DNA of 64,000 nucleotides from a virus (Duplodnaviria; Heunggongvirae; Uroviricota; Caudoviricetes): IMG/VR virus record IMGVR_UViG_3300037453_000505. One strand, given 5' to 3'. A program made the position numbers and the translations under genes. The notes under the pieces are model-generated. The model saw only the letters and a program-made list of their open reading frames with translations. It was not told where the DNA came from and made no database searches. Positions 1 through 50,593 of this stretch are shown in pieces. The stretch's first letter is position 1. Each line of letters starts with the position of its first letter.

Positions 1-10
1 TTTAAGAATA

Positions 11-95
11 GATTACTTTTCCAACCTTGTCATTATCTCCTGTTGCTAGTAGTAATCAAAGGGCAGTATTAGAACAGGAGATAATGACAAGGTTG
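11..95. repeat. Perfect inverted repeat forming a long hairpin: a 29-bp stem (cttttccaaccttgtcattatctcctgtt / aacaggagataatgacaaggttggaaaag) around a loop of about 28 nt. It lies immediately upstream of, and overlaps the start of, the first CDS.
   Basis: Direct reverse-complement match seen in the sequence. Confidence 0.7.
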
Positions 96-662
96 GAAAA
101 GTTATCTATTCTTAAAGATGAAAAGCCAACCATATTAGACACAAATTCTCAATTCTTAAAGATTGAGCAGATGTGTAAGGACAGCTGAACAATTAAAAAA
201 CTTAGCATTCAAGATTGAAAGTTGGTGCTAGATTTTGATTGGAGAGTTGTTATAGATACAGATTGAGAGATAGATTGAATGGTGCTACCACCATTTCAAT
301 TGTTAATTGACCTTAGAAATTATACGGTCAGATGAAATCGTTGTTATCACCCACATATTATGGGAGATTATTCGCTTTGTATGGGTTGAAAATTAACTGA
401 TTTAGTTTCAGACTGTATTGCTAAGAGAGATTTGACTACGTTAGTGGGTTGAATGATTGACTTTTGAAATAGCTGGACATCAAGCGATGCTGGAGATAGC
501 GTTAGACACCCTGCTGAATGTATAGTAAGTTATTATACAAACAATGGAGTATCTAGTTGGAATGATTTACCTGTTTCAAAAGAAGCTATCGATAACACAT
601 TATATGACCGCTGACTTGAACGTAGTGAATTGGGAAGTGGATTCTCTAATTTATTTGACTAA
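84..662 (+). CDS. UBC-like E2 ubiquitin-conjugating enzyme homologue (code 25).
   Basis: Translates to about 192 aa with TGA read as Gly. It contains ...RCYHPHIMGDYSLCMGGKL..., which matches the E2 active-site pattern HPN-I-x3-G-x-(I/L)-C with the Cys eight residues after HPx. It is the first gene of the E2-X-E1-JAB cassette. Confidence 0.5.
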
Positions 663-673
663 TAAAATAACTA

Positions 674-1237
674 ATGCACAGAGATGAAAATGTTAGTGCT
701 GCTACTAGCACGGCATACTGAGCAGTAAATCTAAAGGCATTAGCTGACCATTGATACGCTTATCTAGGTAGAGATTTCGATGATTATTATTTTGTTAGGA
801 GAATAGGCGATGGTTATATAATTAAGAGAGTTATAACACTAGATGATAGTGATATGTCAGAAAGAATGCGGGAATGATTTGATGCTCACGATGCTTGGGT
901 TGATGCAGTTAGAAATGGAGATACAGATGAGAGTTATGAAAGTCGACAGAACGATATAGATATTCGAGATGAAGAAGATAGTGAAGATTATCACGATTGC
1001 TGTCAAGAAATTGTTGACATTCTTCATTGATTATGATTATGGAATGGTGATTATTCAAGCTATAACTGAAATTATTTAGATGAGTTTAACACTCAGACAA
1101 TAGATGTAAATATGCTAGATAATCTCTATAATAAACTAGATAAAAATGACGTCTTCAATGAAGAATTATGGAATGATATAGAGAAAACATATTGACTACA
1201 CCAGGTAGAATTTTTAGCTGCTGAACCTATAAGATAA
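674..1237 (+). CDS. Hypothetical acidic protein inside the ubiquitin-like cassette; possibly the conjugated substrate or Ubl component.
   Basis: Continuous ORF of about 187 aa under code 25 (MHRDENVSAATSTAYGAVNLKALADHGY...AAEPIR). No motif recognised. Its position between E2 and E1 is the only basis for the functional suggestion. Confidence 0.35.
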
Positions 1238-1269
1238 TGCCAGAAAGAAACTTTGACAGGGGGTTAGAT

Positions 1270-1893
1270 ATGTTTAACCCTAATCTTTTTAAAGAAAAAA
1301 AGATTTGAATCATAGGTGCTTGATGAATTGGGAGCAATTCAGCCTATGTGTTGAGTAAAATGTGATTAAAGGTTAAGGTCTGCGATTTCGATGAGGTCGA
1401 TGACGTGAATACTAGTTCACAGTTTTATTCAATGGAACAGTTAGGGAAACCTAAGGTAGAAATGTTAAAAGAAAACATAAAGAAAATGTGTGATGAAGAT
1501 ATTGAGATAGTAAATAGCAAGTATGAGAAATGAATGTTTGATGACTGTGATATTTTAATCTTAGCTTTAGATAGCTTAGCAGTTAGAAAACAAGTAATTG
1601 AAACTTGTAAGGACACTCAATTTATTCTTGACACTAGAATGGTTAAGAAAATAGCACAAGTAAATCTATTGTATGGTATTCAGAGACAGACACGAATGGA
1701 AAAAGAATGGAGAGAAGATGCCGACGCTAATAATGCAGGGACTCGTTGCACAGAAAAAGCAGTTGCTTTCAATGCATTATGAATGGCTGCATTAGTTGGT
1801 AGTATTGTGGCAGATAAACTTAATGGTAAAGATTTGAAATATCAATACACCCTAGATTTAGAGAGCTATAATTTATATGTTTTTAATTCATAG
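1270..1893 (+). CDS. E1-like ThiF/MoeB family adenylyltransferase (minimal E1).
   Basis: MFNPNLFKEKKIGIIGAGGIGSNSAYVLSKMGLKV...QLGKPKVEMLKENIKKM...DCDILILALDSLAVRKQVIETC... The Rossmann GxGxxG motif uses two TGA codons as Gly. The PKVE motif and the D-x-D-x-L motif are typical of ThiF/E1. The gene ends with TAG. Confidence 0.8.
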
Positions 1894-1895
1894 GT

Positions 1896-3137
1896 ATGAG
1901 AGAGTGAACAGAAAAATTAAAGCCTATTACTCAGGAAGAAATAAAGCCTATTGATTATAAAGAAATCAATGAGAAAATCTGACTGAATAATATTAAAGTT
2001 CATCAAGCTCCTGTTCTCACTATCTCAGCTTGGTGTCATAATCATATCAGAGCATTACATAAAAAGTATCCATCAGAAGAATGGACAGCTATTTGTAAGA
2101 TAGTTAATCATTGAGAAGGACAATTTGAAATGGTTGATATGATACACCCTTGACAAAAAACAACTAGCTGAGATGTAGAAACAACTGATGAATGAATGGA
2201 ATGGGCTATTGACCACTTGTTAGAACGTGGTGAAGATTTGTGAGAATGGAATTGTATTCTACATTCTCATCATCATATGGGTTGTTTCTGGTCTGCAACA
2301 GATGACAATGCTAGACTAGGAATGAACGATTGAAGAATGCTTATGTGGGCTGTGGTGACAGCTTATAAGTGAGAAGAAATAGATTATAAAGGTTGCCTTA
2401 ACTTTTATAAGCCATACCCTATTGAGATAGATTGTGATATAGAATATTACACAGAAGATTTATATTGACAGAGAGAACAATGGGGAGATTTTATAGAGAA
2501 TAGAACAAAAGAAATCTATAATGAAATGGTGTTGACAGATGAAACATTAAAGGAATATAAATGCGAATATGATTATGATAACCTATTAAAATATTTAGGT
2601 ATAGACATAACAGATGAGCTTAAAGTTAATGCTAATGTAGTTCAAATGAAAATGCCCTGCGAGTGATATGAAAATAGGTTGAAAGAAATTATGGAAGAAG
2701 CTAAGGAAAAAGTTCAGGAAGAGGTATGAGCGCCGGTAGATAATGAGCTTGTTGATTGGTCTAATTGGTCTGATAATTTACTAGAACAGTTAGATGAAAA
2801 CAAGAAAAAATCTGAGGTAGTTAAAACAACTAAATATAATTATGACTATACCAATAGCTGGGACGATTATGAATATAATCGTTTTTATAATACTAAGCCA
2901 ACTAAAGTTAGTAATAGAGATTTCTATGATAACCCTGAAGAAAAGTATTGCGAGTTTAGTTCAATAAACTACCCTACTAAGTGGAGTTTAATAAATGCTT
3001 ATGGTTTGAATGAACAGTTTGAATTTAGGTTGAATGCTGAAAAAGAACGAGAGGTCTATAACACCCACTATAAAATCTGGTGCTATGTATGAGATGAGTT
3101 AGAAGATTTATACACATATCCAGAAGATTATTTATAG
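1896..3137 (+). CDS. JAB/MPN (JAMM) metalloprotease; deubiquitinase-like.
   Basis: About 413 aa. It contains ...EWNCILHSHHHMGCFWSATDDNARL..., the JAMM zinc motif H-x-H-x7-S-x2-D. It starts 2 nt after the E1 stop. Confidence 0.7.
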
Positions 3138-3154
3138 AATAGTTCGGAGTGGGC

Positions 3155-3236
3155 TTAAATGGTGGTAGAGAGATAGGTTATTTTCCGTTGTCCTATCAAT
3201 AGCTGCTAAACAAATAAAGCTCTGCCACCACTTAAG
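3155..3236. terminator. Structured element downstream of the cassette: a 14-bp long-range stem (ggcttaaatggtgg / ccaccacttaagcc, one mismatch) enclosing an inner 6-bp hairpin (gatagg...cctatc).
   Basis: Inverted repeats seen in the sequence. Function is inferred (terminator or small RNA). Confidence 0.3.
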
Positions 3237-3327
3237 CCTGCTCCTAATAAAAAAGAATTAAAAGAAGAGTTGAAATTAGAAAACTAATGTTTATTATAAC
3301 AATAGTTTTATTTTTTTATTTATTAAA

Positions 3328-5510: not shown

Positions 5511-6280
5511 ATTTAGACTACTTTAAACGCGACAACACTAGAGTGGAACACTTGCCCGGAAGGGTAGAGATGTATTTGTTTTGAAATCGCATAGCAACAT
5601 ATTGGATAAGAGATTGAGTAGTGGAGTTGATAGATTGACATCATCAAACTGTTACGACAAAGGAAAGATTAAATTGAATATTACAATATATGGGTAAATG
5701 ATTTATTTATCAGAAAAACTATGATTGGTATTGGTCTGATGAAAACAATACAGTTAGACCATTTGGTAAATGAATAGCTTTTAGTTGTTTAAAGAAGAAT
5801 GGCATATGGCATATGTAGTATCAATAGATGATGGGTGGGCGACAGAGAACTATTACTTTGCCTATAAACAGAACGCCCTAGAAAAATTTAATAGCCTACT
5901 TGCGGAGGTGGGTAAGGTTAATCTTAACGGCGATAAGATACCGTGTAATGTAGAGAATTGAGAATGATGGATAAGAGTGAAACAAATAAAATGGAGCGAT
6001 GTGGCTAATCAGAAATTTATCTTTGTAGATAATGAAAATAATTTTGTATTAGTCTTAGGAGATTGTGCTACATTTGAGACAGAATATATCAAGCTAACTA
6101 AAAAGTATCGAGATAAAGACTTAGACTGGTCGGGCTTTTACGATGAGTTAGAACAAAAACTAAAATGAAAGGGAGTAGATATTATTCCTGATATTCAAAT
6201 AGTATATCACGACACACTCTCTCGAAATTAAAACAAAATTAAAAAAACACTGGATTTTTTATTTTATTTAATTATAACTA

Positions 6281-10526: not shown

Positions 10527-10624
10527 TCTAATTGGAACGTCGGACGCCAATTTCTAAAGAGTCGACCACAATTGATTTGTGTGATTGTTTTTTATTGCAT
10601 TAGGGGGCTTCGGCTCCTTGATGT

Positions 10625-10715
10625 GGAGAGATGTCAGAGTGGTTGAATGTGGCGACTTGCTAAGTCGTTAACCGGGTGAGAAACCGGTTCGTAGGTTCGA
10701 ATCCTACTCTCTCCG
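10625..10715 (+). tRNA. tRNA-Ser (anticodon GCU), type II with a long variable arm.
   Basis: Cloverleaf folded by hand: acceptor ggagaga/tctctcc, anticodon loop ttGCTaa, long variable arm aaccgggtgagaaaccggttc, T-arm gtagg-ttcgaat-cctac. Confidence 0.75.
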
Positions 10716-10719
10716 AAGA

Positions 10720-10790
10720 TGGGAACTAGCCTAATGGTAGGGCAACAGGCTTTGAACCTGTGTGTCTAGGTTCGACTCCTAGGTTCCCAA
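10720..10790 (+). tRNA. tRNA-Gln (anticodon UUG).
   Basis: Perfect 7-bp acceptor tgggaac/gttccca, anticodon stem acagg/cctgt with loop ctTTGaa, T-arm ctagg-ttcgact-cctag. Confidence 0.75.
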
Positions 10791-10798
10791 AGTTATAT

Positions 10799-10875
10799 GC
10801 GGGTGTGACGTAATTGGTATAGCGTAGCAGACTTCAGCTCTGCCCGTACGGGTTCAAGTCCCGTCGCCCGCTCCA
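10799..10875 (+). tRNA. tRNA-Gly with anticodon UCA, which reads TGA codons.
   Basis: Acceptor gcgggtg/cgcccgc with discriminator U and an encoded CCA. Anticodon stem gcaga/tctgc with loop ctTCAgc. T-arm acggg-ttcaagt-cccgt. The GCGGG acceptor plus U73 are glycine identity elements. Confidence 0.75.
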
Positions 10876-10876
10876 T

Positions 10877-10953
10877 AGGAGATTAGCTCAGATGGTTAGA
10901 GCACTTGTCTGATATGCAAGGTGTCACTGGTTCGATTCCAGTATCTCCTACCA
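10877..10953 (+). tRNA. tRNA-Ile (anticodon GAU).
   Basis: Acceptor aggagat/atctcct, D-arm gctc-agatggtta-gagc, anticodon loop ctGATat, T-arm actgg-ttcgatt-ccagt, encoded CCA. Confidence 0.75.
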
Positions 10954-10956
10954 TAT

Positions 10957-11028
10957 GTACCAGTAGCTCAATGGTAGAGCAGTTGGCTGTTAACCAATTG
11001 GTTATAGGTTCGAGCCCTATCTGGTGCG
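10957..11028 (+). tRNA. tRNA-Asn (anticodon GUU).
   Basis: Acceptor gtaccag/ctggtgc, D-arm gctc-aatggta-gagc, anticodon loop ctGTTaa, T-arm atagg-ttcgagc-cctat. Confidence 0.75.
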
Positions 11029-11035
11029 GGATATT

Positions 11036-11112
11036 GTGAGTGTAGCTCAATTAGTTAGAGCGCTTGTTTGTGGAACAAGAGGTTGGGAGTGCGATTCTCC
11101 TCACTCACCCCA
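11036..11112 (+). tRNA. tRNA-His (anticodon GUG); no G-1 is encoded in the genome.
   Basis: Perfect acceptor gtgagtg/cactcac with discriminator C and an encoded CCA. Anticodon loop ttGTGga. The base at position -1 is T. Confidence 0.7.
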
Positions 11113-11118
11113 ATTTAT

Positions 11119-11189
11119 GGCGGTATCGTTTTATGCAGGTAAGACGGCCTGGTAATGGCAGAAATGTGGTGCAAGTCCCTTTGCCGCCC
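11119..11189 (+). ncRNA. tRNA-sized structured element of unresolved identity; possibly a degenerate or atypical tRNA.
   Basis: A 7-bp terminal stem ggcggta/tgccgcc encloses 57 nt with internal hairpins (gtttta-tgcagg-taagac; gcc-tggtaat-ggc). I could not fold a canonical D/anticodon/T cloverleaf by hand. It sits between tRNA-His and tRNA-Arg. Confidence 0.3.
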
Positions 11190-11193
11190 CTAT

Positions 11194-11267
11194 GTCCCCA
11201 TAGCATAATTGGATAATGCAACAGCCTTCTAAGCTGTGGATTGGTGGTTCGAGCCCACCTGGGGATA
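11194..11267 (+). tRNA. tRNA-Arg (anticodon UCU).
   Basis: Acceptor gtcccca/tggggat, D-arm gcat-aattggata-atgc, anticodon stem acagc/gctgt with loop ctTCTaa, T-arm ggtgg-ttcgagc-ccacc. Confidence 0.75.
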
Positions 11268-11290
11268 ATTTAGATTTAATTATTATAAAA

Positions 11291-13471
11291 ATGAGAACAT
11301 TACTATTATTTAGATGAGCACCTTGATGTGGAAAGTCTACATTTATAAAAGAACATTGATTAGAACCATACACTTTATGTGCAGATACTTTTAGAATGTT
11401 GTATTCTTCTCCTACATTATATGTAAATGGAGAGGTACATATTCCACAAAATGTAAATGGTGTCGCTTGGGATAACTTATTCTCTTGTCTAGAATATAGA
11501 ATGCAAAATGGAGAGTTTACAGTTATCGATGCTACAAATTCTAAAACTGTGGAGATGAATAAATATAAGAAACTAGCTGATGAATATAGATATAGACTTT
11601 ACATTGTCGATATGACAGATATTCCTATCGAAGAAGTAAAGAGAAGGAACAAACTTAGACCAGAATGGAAATGGGTACCAGAAGAAGCTATTGATAATAT
11701 GTACTCTAGATTTTCTACACAAAAAATTCCTAGCTGAATTAAAGTAATCAAACCAGAAGAGGTAAATGATTTATTAAGATGGAGAGCTGTAGAAATTCCA
11801 GACACATATAAAGAGGTAGTACACATAGGAGATATCCATTGATGTTATGAAACATTAATGTCTGCTCTACCTAATGGAATTGAAGAAGATAAATTCTATA
11901 TATTCCTATGAGATTATTATGAAAGAGGTCCAGAAGATGTAAAGACTTTAGACTTTATGGAAAGTATAATAGATTTGCCTAATGTTGTATGTCTAGAATG
12001 AAATCACGAAACTCATTTATGGACTTACGGTATAGGTAAAATCCCTAGAAGTAAACACTTTATGGGATATACTGTGAATGAATTAATCGAATGAGGATGG
12101 GATGCAAAAAGAATGAGAATATTTATGAAGAAATTACTTCAATGTTATTACTATACTTTCAAAGGTAAAACTGTTTTATGTACTCATTGATGAATAAGTA
12201 ATTCTAATTTTGAAGAATTGTTCCCATTAGGGTTAACTTGTCTTGCTACAATAGATTTAATTCATTGAGTAGGTTCTTACAATGATACTTGAGAATGTGA
12301 CAGTAACTTTGCTAAAGGAGATATATTAAGCTGTCACTGACATAGAAATATTGAAGATAAACAAATAGAATGAATAGCTAACCTAGAATGATGAGTTGAA
12401 TGGGGAAAAGAATTAAGAGTTGCTATACTAAATGATAAATTAGAAATAGTTAAATATCCATACAAAGATAGAATACCTTCTAAAGAAGAATTCTTCTGAG
12501 TGAAACAAGATATAACTGTGAAACAATTTATTGAGAGCTTAAGAAAAAATAAGTATATCAATGAAAAAAATGTGCAGTGAAATATAAGTAGCTTTAACTT
12601 TACTAGATGAGCTTTTAGCAGAAGCCATTGGGATAGAGAAACAGTTAAGGCTAGATGATTATTCATTAATACTAATACCTATAAGATAGTTGCTAGAGCT
12701 TATAATAAGTTCTTCAATGTAGATGAACAAAAGAGCACAATGCTATTTAGTATAGGACAAAATGCTCACTTCCCTATCGTTGGGTATAAGAAATATAATG
12801 GGTATTTGTGAATAATTTGATACGATGAAGAAAGTGATGAGTTAGTATTCACAAGTAAATCTGAAGTGGGTTGACCTCACGCTCAACGACTTAAAGAAAT
12901 AGTTATAGAGAAAGGTATAGACTTAGATAAGGTAAAAGACTATTTAAAAGAAAACTTTTGTTCATTAGTCTTTGAGGTAATTGACCCTGTGAATGATGCA
13001 CATATTATTAAGTATACTGAAAGAGATGTAATTCTATTAGATTGTGTAAAGAATACTATTAACTTTGAGAAACTAGATTATAATAGTCTATTAAAGTTAG
13101 GAGAAATACTTTGATTCACAGTGAAAGAAAAGTTAGTAGAGTTAAAAGATATGGTGGAGCTAAGAGAATGTATAGATGAATTACTTAATCCTAATTCAGA
13201 ATACAATACTTGAACTCCTATTGAATGAATGGTATTTGTTGACAAAGATGACTTTATGTTTAAGCAGAAATGAGAATACTATCAGCAATGGAAAAAACTT
13301 AGAGCTTTGATATGAGTAGTAGCAAGATGACAAAACTTTACTCATACTTGAATGTTGACAAATCCAGAGATGAATGAGTTCTATTGATGGTTAAAGGAAC
13401 AGGCTTTAACTTGAGAAGAAAACATTATAGAGCTTAGAGATAAGTTCTATACTAACAAAGCTATGATTAGC
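11291..13471 (+). CDS. Trifunctional Pnkp-like RNA end-healing and sealing enzyme with kinase, metallophosphoesterase and ligase domains.
   Basis: About 727 aa under code 25. The N-terminus carries a P-loop, LLLFRGAPGCGKST, with the first Gly encoded by TGA, and VIDATN, which is kinase-like (compare T4 Pnk). The middle region has GDIHGCYETL...FLGDYYERGPEDVKTL...CLEGNHE, the calcineurin-like phosphoesterase motifs GDxHG / GDxxDRG / GNHE. The C-terminus has ligase motifs I (KYNGYLG), III (SLVFEVIDP), IV (EGMVFVDK) and V (FMFKQKGEYY). This is the domain order of bacterial Pnkp. Confidence 0.7.
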
Positions 13472-13604
13472 TAACATAGGGAGTCGTCCACCTAGGCACG
13501 GACGGATAATGTGGGGTATCACACTGTAAATATTGGCTTTAGTATTAGTAATGCGAAGTACAAACATTATGAGTAGTAAGGTTGATATGATATATCTCCC
13601 CTTT

Positions 13605-16600: not shown

Positions 16601-16674
16601 AGGTACGTGGTGTAATGGTAGCACAGGAGCCTCCAAAACTCTTAGATTAGGTTCAATTCCTAGCGTACTTGCCA
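16601..16674 (+). tRNA. tRNA-Trp (anticodon CCA).
   Basis: Acceptor aggtacg/cgtactt (one G-U pair) with discriminator G and an encoded CCA. D-arm gtgt-aatggta-gcac. Anticodon loop ctCCAaa. T-arm ttagg-ttcaatt-cctag. Confidence 0.65.
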
Positions 16675-37618: not shown

Positions 37619-37790
37619 TAATGGAATAATAATTATTATAAAATTACTTTACTGCAACATCTGAAACTATGGTTCAATTACTTCATCAACTTGAACTACT
37701 ACTAGAACTTGACGTAGACCTTCTTCAAGGGATATATTTTATTCAAGTTACTCATCACCATAGATTTCAGTTATTTGAGCTTTCTCGGCC

Positions 37791-39239
37791 TCTATTGGTT
37801 CTGATAAATGTATCAGATGAATAATAATTTCAAGGTCAATAATTACTTGCATCTACTTGTGTTGTACTTTGATTTGCTATTGTTCAAGTTCGTGGAAATC
37901 AATAGTTATTTCATCGTTGATAATACTTACCACAATTAGCCTCACTTAATGTATCTCCACTATTCCATACTGTAGTAGCTCACAAGTTTTTATCTGCTAT
38001 TGTTACCCAAGTTTGTCAGTCGCTACTTAAACTTATAAGTCAGTCTGTGCTACTCCAAAATATTCATCAGCTTTCTATACTTGTTCAATATAGTTTAGTC
38101 CAAGATGATGTAGGCACAGTTGGGGAATTCTTGAAACAACGGACAGAGAAAACGTAAGAACGGTAGTCGCTATTCTGGGGATTAAGAGCAGTCGAACTGA
38201 AGTATAGGTAGTAGGAGCGATTTGCATCGCTACGAGAAGAAGACCAATAGTACCCGCGGGTACCCTGACCGTCGATATTAGTAGTCAAGGGGTAACGTCT
38301 ACCAGCGAAAGGCAACTTCAACGCTATTCCAAAGTTAGTTCAATCAGAACTTCATCCACCTAAAGCTGTCCATATATCATATACAGCTTGCCACTCTGTA
38401 TTAAGTGGTACGTGAAACCCACTTGGACAAGGTCCCCTCATAGCAGAATAGTCCTTATAAGCGTGGAAAGTTCAAATCGCTCAATGAAGCTTCATATCAG
38501 GAGTTCCCCAAGTTCATTGGGTTACTCATCACCAAAGGTTATCATTTTGAACGGTACTCCAATCATAACTTCAAGTTCCTCTGAATGTATCACCCTCATA
38601 ATAATTTCAAGGTCAATAATTTGAAGCATCTACTCTAAAAGAAGTAGCAGGGATATTTCAACTATGTGCAAATCACAAATTATTACCTCGTTGATAAAAA
38701 TTACCACAGTTAGCATCTGTTAATGTATCTCATTGGTTATATACAGTTGTAGCTCATAGGTTTTTATCTTGTATCGTTATGGGATTTGTTCATACAGTTC
38801 AAGGAGAAATTGTTATAAGTCATAAAGCCTGATTTCGCCAAATTCACGTTTGTCAAATTCAAGGATTATATATTCTAGTCCAACTACTATCTGGTATTAC
38901 AGGCGCATCCTTGAAACAACGGATGGTAAACCCTGTAGAACGGTAGTTGCTCCACAGAGGGTCGATGCTAGACGAATTGAAGCCTAAACTATAGGCATAA
39001 TTAGCATTGTTCGGAGTAGAAGACCAGTAACCACCACGAGACCCCGCGCTGCTAACATTGCCGTCACTGTAGCTACGATATCCAGCCATAGGCATCTTTA
39101 AGTAAGTCCCCATAGTTGTGGCGTTCTGTGCCATTGAAAATGTAGAAGTAAGTATCCCACACAAAGCTGACCATTCACTCTGAAGTGGCACGTGAAACCC
39201 ATCTGGAGCTGGACCTTGTGTATCAAAATGTATTGCCAT
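37791..39239 (-). CDS. FISUMP (Fibrobacter succinogenes major paralogous domain, lectin-like) repeat protein of about 483 aa.
   Basis: ORF-track fragments 38859..39239 and 38085..38321 are joined by TGA=Gly into one frame, with a checked length of 1449 nt. It contains ...PAPDGFHVPLQSEW...GGYWSSTP...GFTIRCFKD, then ...ITIQDKNLGATTVYNQGDTLTDANCGNFYQRGNNLGF...CPSGFHVPLNTEW...GYYWSSS...SVRCFKN, then ...VTIADKNLGATTVWNSGD...CGKYYQRGNNYGFP... These are the FISUMP hallmarks IGNQxWMAENL, YGxLYNW, CPxGWHxPSxxEW, GYYWSST and GFSVRC. Confidence 0.65.
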
Positions 39240-47453: not shown

Positions 47454-47574
47454 TAGTTAAATATTTAAATAGTATCTATATTTAGATTATATTTTTCTTG
47501 CGTTTATCTATAACAAAATAGCCACACCTATACATTAAGTATAGATGTGACTAAAATGTATTTTAATAATAATC

Positions 47575-47920
47575 ATATATTGTACCTCAAATACTTCATT
47601 GACTTCAAGGAATCCATACTTTTAAGACATCTCACGCTGATGCTGTATATGGTCATAAAAAATATTCATCGTGATAAGTTCAAGAAGTGAAATAATAATT
47701 AAACATCTCTACATCATTTAATGATAGAGCATATCAGTGCATACTTCATACTTTTACAAATCAAAGTCATCTGAATGTATATGTAGTAGGTCAAGAAAAA
47801 TTTGTCGTATGTACAGTTCAATATTCTTTACAAGCTTTTGCGAAAGCTCACATTGAGGCTCACGAAACTGATATATTTTTTATAATGCTAGTATCTACTG
47901 AAATAGCATCACTCACTATT
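47575..47920 (-). CDS. Small Gly/Tyr-rich protein between tail-fibre genes B and A; possible fibre chaperone or assembly factor.
   Basis: MGAFAKACKEYGTVHTTNFSGPTTYTFRGLGFVKVGSMHGYALSLNDVEMFNYYFTSGTYHDEYFLGPYTASAGDVLKVWIPGSQGSIGGTIYDYY. Coordinates approximate. Confidence 0.25.
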
Positions 47921-47997
47921 CAAGTTATCTCTCACCAAAGATTATTATTATTTGAACTATCCCAACCAGATGGGCTGGTTGTTCTAATTATAAATGT

Positions 47998-50564
47998 GCT
48001 ATTATCATAATAATTTCAAGGTCAATAACTAGAAGCATCTACTTGTGTAGACGAAGTAGTTACAGTTCAAGTTCGTGGAAATCAATAGTTATTTCATCGC
48101 TGATAATATTTACCACAATTAGCTTCACTTAATGTATTTCAATTATTATATACCGTAGTAGCTCATAAGTTTTTATCGGCAATAGTTATCCAATTATTAC
48201 CATCACTAGATATAGAAATAATTCATAATGATGGGCTATGATATATTCAAGAATTTCAGCTGCCCTGATATAATACTGTCCAATTACTATTTGGACTTAT
48301 TGATATATCTTTAAATGGACGAATTGAATTTGCATCTGAACGCCTACTGAATTGAGTAGGGTTTACAATATCCCCGAATTCAATATTATAAGCAAACTCT
48401 TCACCAGCGTGTGTGGATGACCAATAATATCCAACGTGTTCTTGATTAAACTCGTGAGAATCTTCATACCAACGACTTCCTGCAAACGGTATTTTTAAAT
48501 AAGTTTTAAAATCGCTTCATCAATTAGAATTCCAAGCTCATAAACTTACTCACATATCATATAAAGTTACCCACTCATCTTTAGAGGGTATATGGAATCC
48601 ATCATCACAAGGTCATTGCATAGCTGAATAATCGTCTCATATTATTATTCACTTTCAAGCATTATAACTTGTTGCTTCTGGGTCTCCTGGTTGTAACTCT
48701 AAATTTCAGCCCACGGCTAGAAATACAAACTGGTCAATACCGTTTTCAGTTAATGTTAAATCTTCGTTATAAGGATTAGTTATATTTGTTCAGAGTGTCA
48801 TTGTATAAACTATTGCTCAATTTGTCACCCTTAATATATATCTCTGTCAATCCTTTATAGAAGATGGAGCATTGATAGTAAAATTCGCAGACGGAGTTAT
48901 TGAAGTAGATAAATCTAGAGTAACTGTAGCTCAAGATTTATTCTGGAAATTGAAATCATTATATTTCATATCTCCATCTCAAACAATTTCCCAACTATCT
49001 CAATCCCATACCTTTAATATATTATTAGTTGTATCATACCAAAGCTGTCAAGTAACTGGATTAGAAGGAGCTGTAGTTCAAGATGTTATAGCGTTTTTAA
49101 CTTTATCATCTACATATTTCTTTGTCGTAGGACTTCAGTCATAAGCTGGAGTATATGTAGGTCAATAGGCACTATAGTTTACATCTGTACTAAGGAATTT
49201 TACTAGCTTTTGATTTTCATATGTGATACTTGTAACTACATCACTAGAGTAGTTTAAATCTAATCTAGTATTATGTATTTGTGTATCTCAATCTGCACTC
49301 ATTACAGAATATCCTGTATAAGCTTCATAGAATGATAATTTATCTCAATTAAGATGTGAATCTGAAGTGAGATGAAAGTTTGTTGTCTCATCTGTTCAGA
49401 ATACAATTATAGGATTATTTCAAGCTTTCCAATAATCATACGCCGCCTGTGCCTGAGCTAAGTCTGTAGCATCAGCCTGTGAAGCAGACTTTATGTAGAA
49501 AGCTTTTACATTTGTATAAGTATCCACAGGAGTCCAACTTGTTCAATTATATATTTTTAATATATGATTAGTTGTATCGTACCACAATTGTCATTCTGTT
49601 GGATTTTGTGGAGCTGCGCTTCAAGAAGAAATAGTATCTCATATACTATCATCAACATATTGTTTATTAGCTATAACTGTAGTATCTACAGAAAATTCAC
49701 CAGAACTAAGATTTAATCAATATCAAGCTGTATATGTAGTATCTGTATCTATAATATCCCAACTTGTTCAGTTATATACTTTTAATAAATCATTAGTTGT
49801 ATCATACCAAAGCATTCATTCTGTCGCAGGAGAAGGGGCTGTAGGTCAAACATATTTACTTCATTCTATTGCGTCATTAATAGCTGAAGCAACTTCTCCT
49901 GCAGTTTGATACCCTATGTTATTTGTTAATTCTGTGATATTATCTCAAGGTTGAATAGATGTAGCTCATAAAGCTGCACCTGCCCTAATAGTAGATAAAT
50001 CAAGAATATTATCTTGTTTTGTAGTAAGAGCTAAATAAACAGCTCTATTCTCTACGGCGTTCCTAGATGTAGGAGATAATCCATCGTCTATAATTATTTC
50101 TTTTACTTTATTAACCTGTAGTAACCATTGATTTCAATCATAGATATAGAAATCATTTACATTAACTTCCTCTGTCTCAACAGTCTGACTTGCTACTCAA
50201 GGAGTGTATACACTTCAATGAGGGCGATAATTTAACTGTCAAGTAGGTGCAACTGTAGCAACTATATAATAGTCTCAAGTTGCATATGTATGAGGAGAGT
50301 CTACTGGGTCTGTTACTGGCAATCAAGTAGTACAATCCCAAGAAGATAAATATTTATTTAATCAAGTTATTGCATTTATCTGGTCTTGTAATGCCTTACC
50401 CATATTAGCAGATAAGGCATCAGTTGTAGACGTTGAATTAATGTTGTCAATAACCCCAGGAATATTGTTAATTTTTTCTTCAATTTCCTGGGTTAATTTA
50501 TTGACACGCTTTTCCTTATCTGTATACACTCAATCTCAATTATATATTAATCTTGCGTCTGCCA
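47998..50564 (-). CDS. Large tail-fibre protein B (about 855 aa); paralogue of A (N-terminus) and C (C-terminal module), ending in a FISUMP-like region.
   Basis: N-terminus MADARLIYNWDWVYTDKEKRVNKLTQEIEEKINNIPGVIDNINSTSTTDALSANMGKALQDQINAIT... The internal ...PSANFTINAPSSIKDGQIYILRVTNGAIVYTMTL... matches gene C. The FISUMP C-half (PDGFH..., GYW...) and module lie at about 48005..48640. The stop, TTA on the + strand, is at 47998..48000. Confidence 0.45.
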
Positions 50565-50593
50565 TATTGTGTATTTAGATTAAGGAATAAAAA

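Follow-up and report, generated by a model that had tools for sequence, protein, structure and literature searches.

A candidate ubiquitin-like conjugation cassette with a minimal E1 in a phage that uses genetic code 25

At the left edge of a 64,000-nucleotide (nt) stretch of Caudoviricetes DNA (IMG/VR record IMGVR_UViG_3300037453_000505; 'the window' below means this whole stretch) lie four consecutive genes on the + strand (Table 1). They encode the C-terminal half of a protein resembling E2 conjugating enzymes (g1), an accessory protein without a known fold (g2), a minimal E1 activating enzyme and a JAB/JAMM metalloprotease, and in relatives a gene for a ubiquitin-like protein (Ubl) stands directly upstream of g1. 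The genes are tightly packed: 11 nt separate the g1 stop from the g2 start, the g2 stop and the E1 start overlap as TAATG, and the 2-nt gap between E1 and JAB is as originally reported. The initial annotation had read the locus as the E2/E1/JAB architecture of ubiquitin-like conjugation in four genes. That reading gains support from the ThiF score of E1, the invariant JAMM residues and the upstream Ubl gene described below, while the count rises to five once the Ubl gene of the relatives is included. We consider it likely that the cassette is a phage-encoded five-gene Ubl conjugation pathway made up of the Ubl, an E2 with an N-terminal domain, g2, the minimal E1 and JAB.

The four genes seen originally are there, but they exist only in a translation that treats TGA as sense. 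Under translation table 11 the longest open reading frame (ORF) in nt 1-3137 has 83 amino acids (aa), whereas with TGA as sense each cassette gene has one reading frame, in which in-frame TGA is common, and the summed length of ORFs longer than 100 aa across the window rises from 3,996 to 25,146 aa (7,164 aa if TAG is read as sense instead). When the four protein families are aligned with their relatives, the residue most often found opposite TGA is glycine (193 of 580), followed by aspartate with 52, and tryptophan is not among the ten commonest. Given this dominance of glycine, the whole window uses genetic code 25, in which TGA encodes glycine. The alternative that TGA encodes tryptophan (code 4) was rejected on the predominance of glycine and on a phage tRNA with anticodon UCA and a glycine-like acceptor stem. 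This tRNA, one of eight tRNA genes in the window and the one reading UGA, has a GCG/CGC acceptor stem and U73, which we take to be glycine-like, and its ordinary length together with these features suggests that the phage brings its own UGA decoder. Code 25 is the code of Gracilibacteria and Absconditabacteria (PMC10746230), and on the genetic code alone the host would belong to one of these two groups.

The E1 is firmly identified as a ThiF-family adenylation domain. It matches Pfam ThiF (PF00899) with 66.2 bits against a cut-off of 28.1 (E = 3.2e-18), and a profile of its family finds TcdA, MccB, SAE2, MoeB, UBA3, UBA5 and Cap2 in the PDB. It consists of one adenylation domain, in which the loop GAGGIG (nt 1315-1332), Asp112 and Cys171 (nt 1747-1749) are invariant. 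The GxGxxG motif pointed out originally is hence not fortuitous, and its loop is coded G-A-TGA-TGA-I-G, so that two of the glycines are TGA codons. From its position, Cys171 would correspond to the crossover-region cysteine of ThiF, MoeB and UbaA. The protein had been given a length of about 208 aa; counted from the ATG at nt 1237, in agreement with the starts of its homologues, it has 218 aa, and its relatives (217-227 aa) likewise have a single adenylation domain without insertion. The PADLOC 'E1-E2' models of Cap2 match it at about 1e-8 over the E1 part of the models only, and Cap2 chains in the PDB at about 2e-4.

In g1, numbered from the methionine at nt 84, the active-site motif reads His89-Pro90-His91 … Cys99. 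The HPH-x7-C spacing, which had been recognized from the outset, is invariant across 32 clusters of the family (x6 in one subgroup); among the remotest relatives (about 20% identity), Pro90, His91 and Cys99 are invariant and His89 nearly so. It equals the spacing of HPN-x7-Cys in UbcH5. An AlphaFold model of a full-length homologue (P0004), built on 32 sequences, reaches a mean predicted local distance difference test (pLDDT) score of 81, and the fold that it predicts is UBC-like. On predicted fold, motif and context, g1 is a probable E2-like (UBC) protein. Full-length homologues have 378-455 aa and carry an extra N-terminal domain of about 190 aa, and the window keeps the C-terminal half, about 190 residues. 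An exhaustive HMMER search with the g1 family among 1.84 billion proteins returned 39 representatives, and the nine distant relatives scanned among them contain no informative Pfam domain.

The truncation of g1 follows from the sequence end. The gene had been taken as complete at nt 84-662 (192 aa), but the ATG at nt 84 is a conserved internal methionine and not a start. In-frame TAA and TAG codons at nt 3-11 fall inside a fold-back arm at the very edge of the window, which is most likely a contig-end assembly artefact, so they mark no real gene boundary ahead of g1. A related 1.9-kilobase (kb) contig (L011; related loci carry our working labels) is 95% identical to window positions 38-1303, matches window positions 44 to 1 in reverse, and there the g1 frame runs uninterrupted upstream for at least 422 codons. 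The possibility that g1 is truly split in two or a pseudogene was rejected on the same grounds, the stops lying in the fold-back arm and the ORF of L011 being intact.

The gene that follows E1 encodes, with moderate confidence, a JAB/JAMM protease linked to g1. Its motif, His123-Ser-His125-x7-Ser133-xx-Asp136 (nt 2262-2303), is joined by Glu62; Glu62, His123, His125, Ser133 and Asp136 are invariant in all eight relatives, and Rpn11 accounts for the top seven PDB matches of the family profile (E = 0.05-0.15, aligned over the JAMM motif). The HxHx7Sx2D motif that was initially noted is, on this invariance and these matches, not fortuitous. The N-terminal approximately 175 aa form the protease part, and the remaining C-terminal stretch, about 240 aa long, is conserved as well. 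The acidic g2 has 31 homologue clusters, each with a C-terminus of the form …EFL[AD][AC]E[PDN][IV]R, and the strictly conserved tail (…EFLAAEPIR) is disordered in the structure model (pLDDT 81; predicted template modelling score 0.71). It had been put forward as a candidate beta-grasp protein for structure prediction, which instead returned a three-strand meander with helices; by this model, g2 is a conserved protein of no known fold and not a beta-grasp. Upstream of its Ubl gene, L005, the cassette of which otherwise has no g2, carries a weakly g2-like ORF (E = 1.1e-5 with the g2 profile).

All 12 related loci that extend beyond the 5' end of g1 have a Ubl gene of 75-84 codons immediately before it. 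Its family profile matches Pyrococcus SAMP2 (4e-4) and MoaD (7e-4) in the PDB, and in Pfam its members match ThiS (6e-6; three of seven members) and SAMP2 (2.9e-5; four of seven). The C-terminus is K-x-T-Q-G with an invariant glycine: nine loci end in …TQG, one in …KQG, and three have two more residues (TQG-AN, TQG-NN). With moderate confidence, this protein is a SAMP2/ThiS-like beta-grasp modifier. The earlier statement that no Ubl ending in Gly-Gly is present holds inside the window and does not extend to the relatives, in which a Ubl ending in …TQG precedes the E2 gene. For the window phage, the relatives suggest a Ubl gene to the left of nt 1. L004 has, in addition, a 71-aa ORF immediately upstream of its Ubl gene, with a sequence pattern (…LEQGDIVVVWVR) reminiscent of a second beta-grasp; this ORF lacks a terminal glycine, does not match the Ubl profile and has no support from Pfam.

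Searches with the E1, g1 and g2 families gathered 18 metagenome loci, in which the cassette occurs in four gene orders. The window type is Ubl-E2-g2-E1-JAB. A second type, represented by L008, L009 and L014, has the order Ubl-E2-E1-(tandem small genes)-JAB, is without g2 and has a longer acidic E2 tail; a third order is E1-E2-JAB. The fourth, Ubl-like-JAB-E1-E2, is found in L016 (20.6 kb), which uses the standard code (table 11) and encodes a 73-aa Ubl candidate ending in …KHESA, without a terminal glycine, a 313-aa protein with HSH-x7-S-xx-D, a 221-aa ThiF protein and a 405-aa E2-like protein, beside replication genes with DnaB-like and SNF2-like neighbours. Because the linkage of E1, E2 and JAB outlasts this reshuffling, it argues for a functional unit. 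Since the cassette genes served as the queries for these loci, the sample is biased as to whether the cassette is core or accessory in this phage group. The small genes of the g2-less type are four to six tandem paralogues between E1 and JAB. They encode about 73-104 aa, except for one in L009 with 174 aa, and many of the products end in …LF[IL]; single copies occur further upstream.

Selection on the cassette was estimated by comparing the window with three relatives. The ratio of nonsynonymous to synonymous divergence (dN/dS) is 0.07-0.085 for E1, 0.20 for JAB, 0.14-0.21 for the E2 domain and 0.19-0.33 for g2, and on these ratios all four window genes are under purifying selection. Synonymous divergence (dS) is uneven, with 0.65 for E1 compared with approximately 2.0 for g1, which suggests that the cassette is mosaic.

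Table 1 Features of the cassette, the remaining window and related loci.
Feature	Sequence	Position (nt)	Strand	Remarks
Fold-back arm	Window	1..44		Inverted copy of 73-116, 98% complementary, 28 nt between arms
g1 3' part, predicted UBC-like (E2-like) catalytic domain	Window	38..662	+	5' end cut by sequence end
E2 motif HPH-x7-Cys	Window	348..380	+	HPH nt 348-356, Cys nt 378-380
g2, acidic accessory protein, 187 aa	Window	674..1237	+	
Minimal E1, ThiF/MoeB-type, 218 aa	Window	1237..1893	+	
Probable JAB/JAMM metalloprotease, 413 aa	Window	1896..3137	+	
RNA hairpin past JAB stop	Window	3148..3245	+	
RNA hairpin, relatives	L001; L004	about 5808-5910; about 12358-12460		
206-aa Cys-rich protein	Window; L001; L012; L004	3863-4483; 5935-6561; 7140-7760; 12948-13568		
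tRNA cluster	Window	10624-11268		7 genes: Ser, Gln, UCA-reading, Ile, Asn, His, Arg
tRNA, anticodon UCA	Window	10799-10875		ARAGORN label 'SeC'; normal length; ordinary tRNA by Rfam score
Kinase-phosphatase-RNA ligase fusion, 752 aa	Window	11216-13474		phrog_8238, E = 1e-207
tRNA-Trp(CCA)	Window	16601-16674		
Repeat-module protein, 531 aa	Window	37644-39239	-	
Repeat-module protein, 1000 aa	Window	47563-50565	-	Tail-fibre-like
71-aa ORF	L004	7642-7857		Just upstream of Ubl gene
Weak g2-like ORF	L005	7740-8303		
Standard-code cassette	L016	6122-9218		
Tandem small genes	L008	10685-12199		
Tandem small genes	L009	5025-6321; 894-1124		
Small gene(s) of the g2-less type	L010	1066-1296		
Tandem small genes	L014	12096-12899		

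Within the window, the cassette belongs to a non-structural block on the + strand and is more than 24 kb from the structural genes, which are on the opposite strand. The idea put forward at the outset, that tail or fibre proteins are the ones conjugated, finds no support in this arrangement. Neither is the cassette at the left end of the element, as had been thought; that end is the sequence end only, and in the 75-kb contig behind L014 the cassette stands mid-contig, a few kb inside the + strand block that adjoins a divergent junction. Past the JAB stop lies a hairpin with a predicted RNA folding energy of -56.5 kcal/mol (z = -5.4) and a stem of about 24 base pairs. It is kept in L001 and L004, where a T-run follows it, and across the three sequences 7 of 33 pairs are preserved through changes on both sides. 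No Rfam family matches it at gathering score; it is probably the operon terminator. One to three genes downstream of the cassette, the window-type relatives encode a Cys-rich 206-aa protein with a DUF1281_C/Api92-like ferredoxin-like domain (Pfam, 3.4e-10 for the copy in L001).

The rest of the window is phage sequence, with a portal protein, tail fibres, RNA ligase/kinase, a DNA methyltransferase and the tRNA genes. Directly past the tRNA cluster lies a kinase-phosphatase-RNA ligase fusion, which presumably resembles the tRNA-repair enzymes that phages use against host anticodon nucleases. Two - strand proteins share repeated modules of the form GPCP.GFHVP…EW…YYWSS, which seem to resemble the Fibrobacter succinogenes major paralogous domain. 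Exact-match DNA scans with the window gave no match in IMG/VR or in GTDB genomes, no relatives of the E1 or of the portal protein turned up in IMG/VR, and a tblastn search with the E1 against GenBank phages found none. Homologues of window proteins in databases have mostly been called with TGA as tryptophan and carry false tryptophan residues. Most databases mistranslate code-25 phages, taking TGA for a stop or for tryptophan, and this is probably why the cassette has gone unnoticed.

Taken together, the five proteins can be arranged in a working pathway, the chemical steps of which we infer from family knowledge. The E1 (218 aa) probably forms a homodimer, as MoeB, ThiF and UbaA do, and would adenylate the C-terminal glycine of the 75-84-aa Ubl (…K-x-T-Q-G). 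The Ubl may then pass via Cys171 of the E1 to Cys99 in the HPH-x7-Cys motif of the E2, which would join it to lysines of target proteins. No E3 is encoded in the cassette; the targets may be picked by the approximately 190-aa N-terminal domain of the E2, by g2, or by both. JAB would cut off the two residues past the glycine in some relatives (…TQG-AN, …TQG-NN) and would probably also reverse conjugation. The place of the operon in a non-structural block, and the divergent junction near it in the full-length relative, favour action during infection on host or phage proteins. A bolder proposal is that a complete, if minimal, pathway belongs to a clade of phages, which comprises code-25 phages of candidate phyla and one or more standard-code relatives; the parts of the pathway would be a SAMP2-like modifier, a 218-aa E1, a previously unrecognized E2 family of the HPN-x7-Cys type fused to a substrate-binding domain, a new accessory protein and JAB. 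The pathway would be used offensively in infection, tagging host proteins (for takeover or counter-defence) or the phage's own and so mirroring the Bil defence of hosts. We give this full proposal, purpose included, a probability of about 0.45.

Several results weigh against a conjugation pathway and have to be set beside the evidence above. For g1, sequence and profile searches of Pfam, PHROGs, PADLOC, NCBIfam and the PDB gave no match, and the Pfam E2 models (UQ_con, Prok-E2_A to E) match none of seven family members. When hhalign compared the E2-domain alignment with four canonical E2s, the HPH…C and HPN…C motifs were the only parts to be paired, with a probability of 0.4%. UbcH5c is the first Foldseek match of the g1 homologue model in the PDB, with a non-significant E value of 0.21, and all structure models were made from database homologues in which TGA-encoded glycines are written as tryptophan. 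The UBC fold proposed for g1 in the initial annotation is upheld by predicted structure and motif, and no profile search recognizes it as an E2. The E1 has neither CxxC zinc motifs nor an inserted (mobile) Cys domain. Furthermore, the arginine of the N-x-x-R-Q motif, which contacts ATP, is replaced: residues 58-62 read NTSSQ in all relatives compared with NTNRQ in TcdA, and the standard-code relative has NLNNQ at this site, so that the conserved ATP-contacting arginine appears to be missing from the family. The Pfam Prok-JAB model matches seven of eight JAB family members, the best with a sub-threshold 16.6 bits against a cut-off of 25 (E = 0.0074). Finally, neither a Ubl gene nor a second cassette copy was found inside the window at E <= 10, and the nearest families of the relatives' Ubl (ThiS, MoaD and SAMP2) also serve as sulfur carriers.

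The last point leads to a different reading, in which the ThiF-like enzyme would adenylate and thiocarboxylate a ThiS/MoaD-like carrier that serves cofactor synthesis or the thiolation of tRNA, like the pairs ThiF-ThiS, MoeB-MoaD and TtuC-TtuB, and JAB would only mature this carrier. The Ubl matches and the single MoeB-like domain of the E1 fit it, as do the best NCBIfam match of the E1 (ThiF PRK08644, 4e-22) and the investment of the phage in tRNA, with eight tRNA genes and RNA ligase/kinase. The same NCBIfam models, however, leave the E1 far under their equivalog cut-offs, with 78.9 against 159 for PRK08644, 47.4 against 275 for TIGR02356 and 38.6 against 266 for MoeB PRK05690, and the Ubl ends in a single glycine after glutamine, not in Gly-Gly. 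An E1 grouping with MoeB next to MoaD/ThiS genes, which the initial annotation had named as a sign of sulfur transfer, is formally present in that the Ubl is ThiS/MoaD-like, but the four cassette proteins and the immediate neighbours scanned include no match to a rhodanese, a cysteine desulfurase, ThiG/ThiH, MoaE or TtuA and no other sulfur-transfer gene. Because a UBC-like protein with an invariant cysteine, of no use to a sulfur relay, is linked to E1 and JAB in every gene order, and because no sulfur partner occurs among the genes scanned, we regard a pure sulfur-carrier pathway as quite improbable. Less probable still, to the point of being negligible, is peptide modification of the MccB/PaaA kind, in which the E1-like enzyme would adenylate a small peptide or the C-terminus of g2 (…EPIR) and the E2-like fold would be a coincidence. 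MccB is indeed the best single-sequence PDB match of the E1 (5e-6), PaaA is among the family-profile matches and the extreme C-terminus of g2 is strictly conserved. Yet both enzymes align over the shared Rossmann part only, the family profile scores TcdA and true E1s equally well or better, and the E1 has no N-terminal peptide-clamp region (218 compared with approximately 350 aa). A beta-grasp protein with an invariant C-terminal glycine is the obvious substrate, and the L008, L009 and L014 type of cassette does without g2.

The main alternative to an offensive purpose keeps the same biochemistry and gives it a defensive role, a Bil-like anti-phage or superinfection-exclusion system that tags the proteins of competing phages. 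Defence against phages has been either demonstrated or proposed for the characterized Ubl/E1/E2/JAB operons of bacteria: Bil attaches its tag to the central tail fibre of the phage (10.1101/2023.09.04.556158, PMC10557695), and Bub and CBASS (cyclic-oligonucleotide-based anti-phage signalling system) Cap2/3 are further bacterial examples (PMC11601596). The matches of the E1 to the PADLOC Cap2 models point the same way, and the divergence of g1 and g2, the presumed specificity parts, far outpaces that of E1 and does so at synonymous sites as well, which suggests module exchange or an arms race. Against defence, PADLOC-DB v2.0.0, the Bil content of which was not checked, has no model that matches g1, g2 or JAB, the single-domain E1 is unlike BilD, and no regulator of the CapW or CapH/CapP type occurs among the immediate neighbours checked. 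In addition, within this biased sample all window-type relatives keep the cassette at the same syntenic position among non-structural genes and not in a variable island. A defensive role is thus, in our judgement, rather unlikely, and conjugation used during infection remains the reading that we favour.

Among the literature covered by a limited searchable library, no complete phage-encoded E1/E2/JAB/Ubl cassette is described, and the main paper on code-25 phages mentions neither ubiquitin nor ThiF. The sole described pairing of Ubl and JAB in phages that we found is that of the lambda and T1 tail proteins I and K (Ubl and JAB-NlpC/P60; PMC1779556), which has no E1 or E2, lies in the tail cluster and has an extra C-terminal domain in protein I, whereas the present cassette is in a non-structural block. 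Recent work has shown or proposed that Ubl/E1/E2/JAB operons serve bacterial hosts as weapons against phages; if our proposal is true, bacterial viruses also wield ubiquitin-like tagging, as eukaryotic viruses do. The candidate hosts are uncultured, and effectors encoded by phages offer one of the few ways into their biology. The g1 family also bears on the origin of the E2 active site, given that it is missed by every sequence model tried yet has the HPN-type motif and spacing of eukaryotic E2s. If confirmed, the system would be tiny and separable, with a 218-aa E1, a 75-aa Ubl and an E2 that carries its own targeting domain on the same chain, and would allow E1-to-E2 transfer to be studied without a mobile Cys domain or an E3.

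Of the known systems, type II CBASS has E1 and E2 chemistry and a JAB peptidase, and its Cap2 matches our E1, but Cap2 is a fused E2-E1 whose substrate is the C-terminus of a CD-NTase and not a Ubl; the present cassette has E1 and E2 as separate proteins and a dedicated Ubl of its own, and it contains neither a CD-NTase nor an effector. Archaeal sampylation comprises SAMP1-3, UbaA and HvJAMM1, and the Thermus counterpart TtuB, TtuC and a JAMM protein; the E1s of both also serve sulfur transfer, and SAMPs end in Gly-Gly. These systems resemble the cassette in the Ubl, nearest to SAMP2, ThiS and MoaD, in a single MoeB-like E1 with a cysteine past the crossover and in the JAMM partner. They differ from it in that a UBC-like protein with an invariant cysteine is always linked here (sampylation and Ttu are not known to use any E2), the Ubl ends in Gln-Gly, and no sulfur partner occurs among the genes scanned. 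PRTRC, the NCBIfam name for a ParB-related, ThiF-related cassette (TIGR03735-03742), is linked to plasmids and integrative elements, and its ThiF and protein A models match the window E1 and JAB only weakly and far under their cut-offs (PRTRC_ThiF 7e-12, 45.2 against 144.75; PRTRC_A 0.097, 12.2 against 101.8). The cassette also resembles the class 6d operons (Iyer et al. 2006, PMC1779556, table row 6d), which likewise have five components including a fast-evolving extra protein. The operons of class 6d are in bacterial genomes, and their E2-like protein has no histidine upstream of the cysteine and one downstream (PMC1779556), whereas HPH precedes the cysteine here. Bub (6E/DUF6527), also bacterial, has Ubl, E2, E1 and JAB in type I (PMC11601596), but as Ubl-E2 and JAB-E1 fusions, or as E2-E1 fusions in type II, in place of separate proteins. 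It also works through oxyester (Ser) intermediates with the serine protease BubE (DUF6527), whereas in the cassette the cysteines of E1 and E2 are invariant and Pfam gives no DUF6527 match.

The closest likeness is to Bil (BilABCD, types I and II), in which Ubl, E2, JAB/JAMM and E1 are separate proteins of one operon, as in the 12 related loci (in the window, the Ubl is off the edge), and no E3 is encoded. Trimming of the Ubl may expose its glycine in both, given that BilA loses Ala98 (PMC10557695) and some relatives here have TQG-AN or TQG-NN tails. BilD, however, is large, with an inactive and an active adenylation domain, a mobile Cys domain and a Cys4 zinc site (PMC10557695), whereas the E1 here is a single 218-aa domain without CxxC. 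Likewise, the Bil E2 has a cysteine and a downstream histidine (CEHH in type II), in contrast to the eukaryote-like HPH-x7-C of g1 (PMC10557695, PMC11601596). The cassette further differs in its SAMP2/ThiS-like Ubl, in the approximately 190-aa N-terminal domain of its E2, in the extra protein g2 and in being encoded by a phage and not in a host defence island. The cassette would work like Bil and yet departs from the E1 architecture that defines it.

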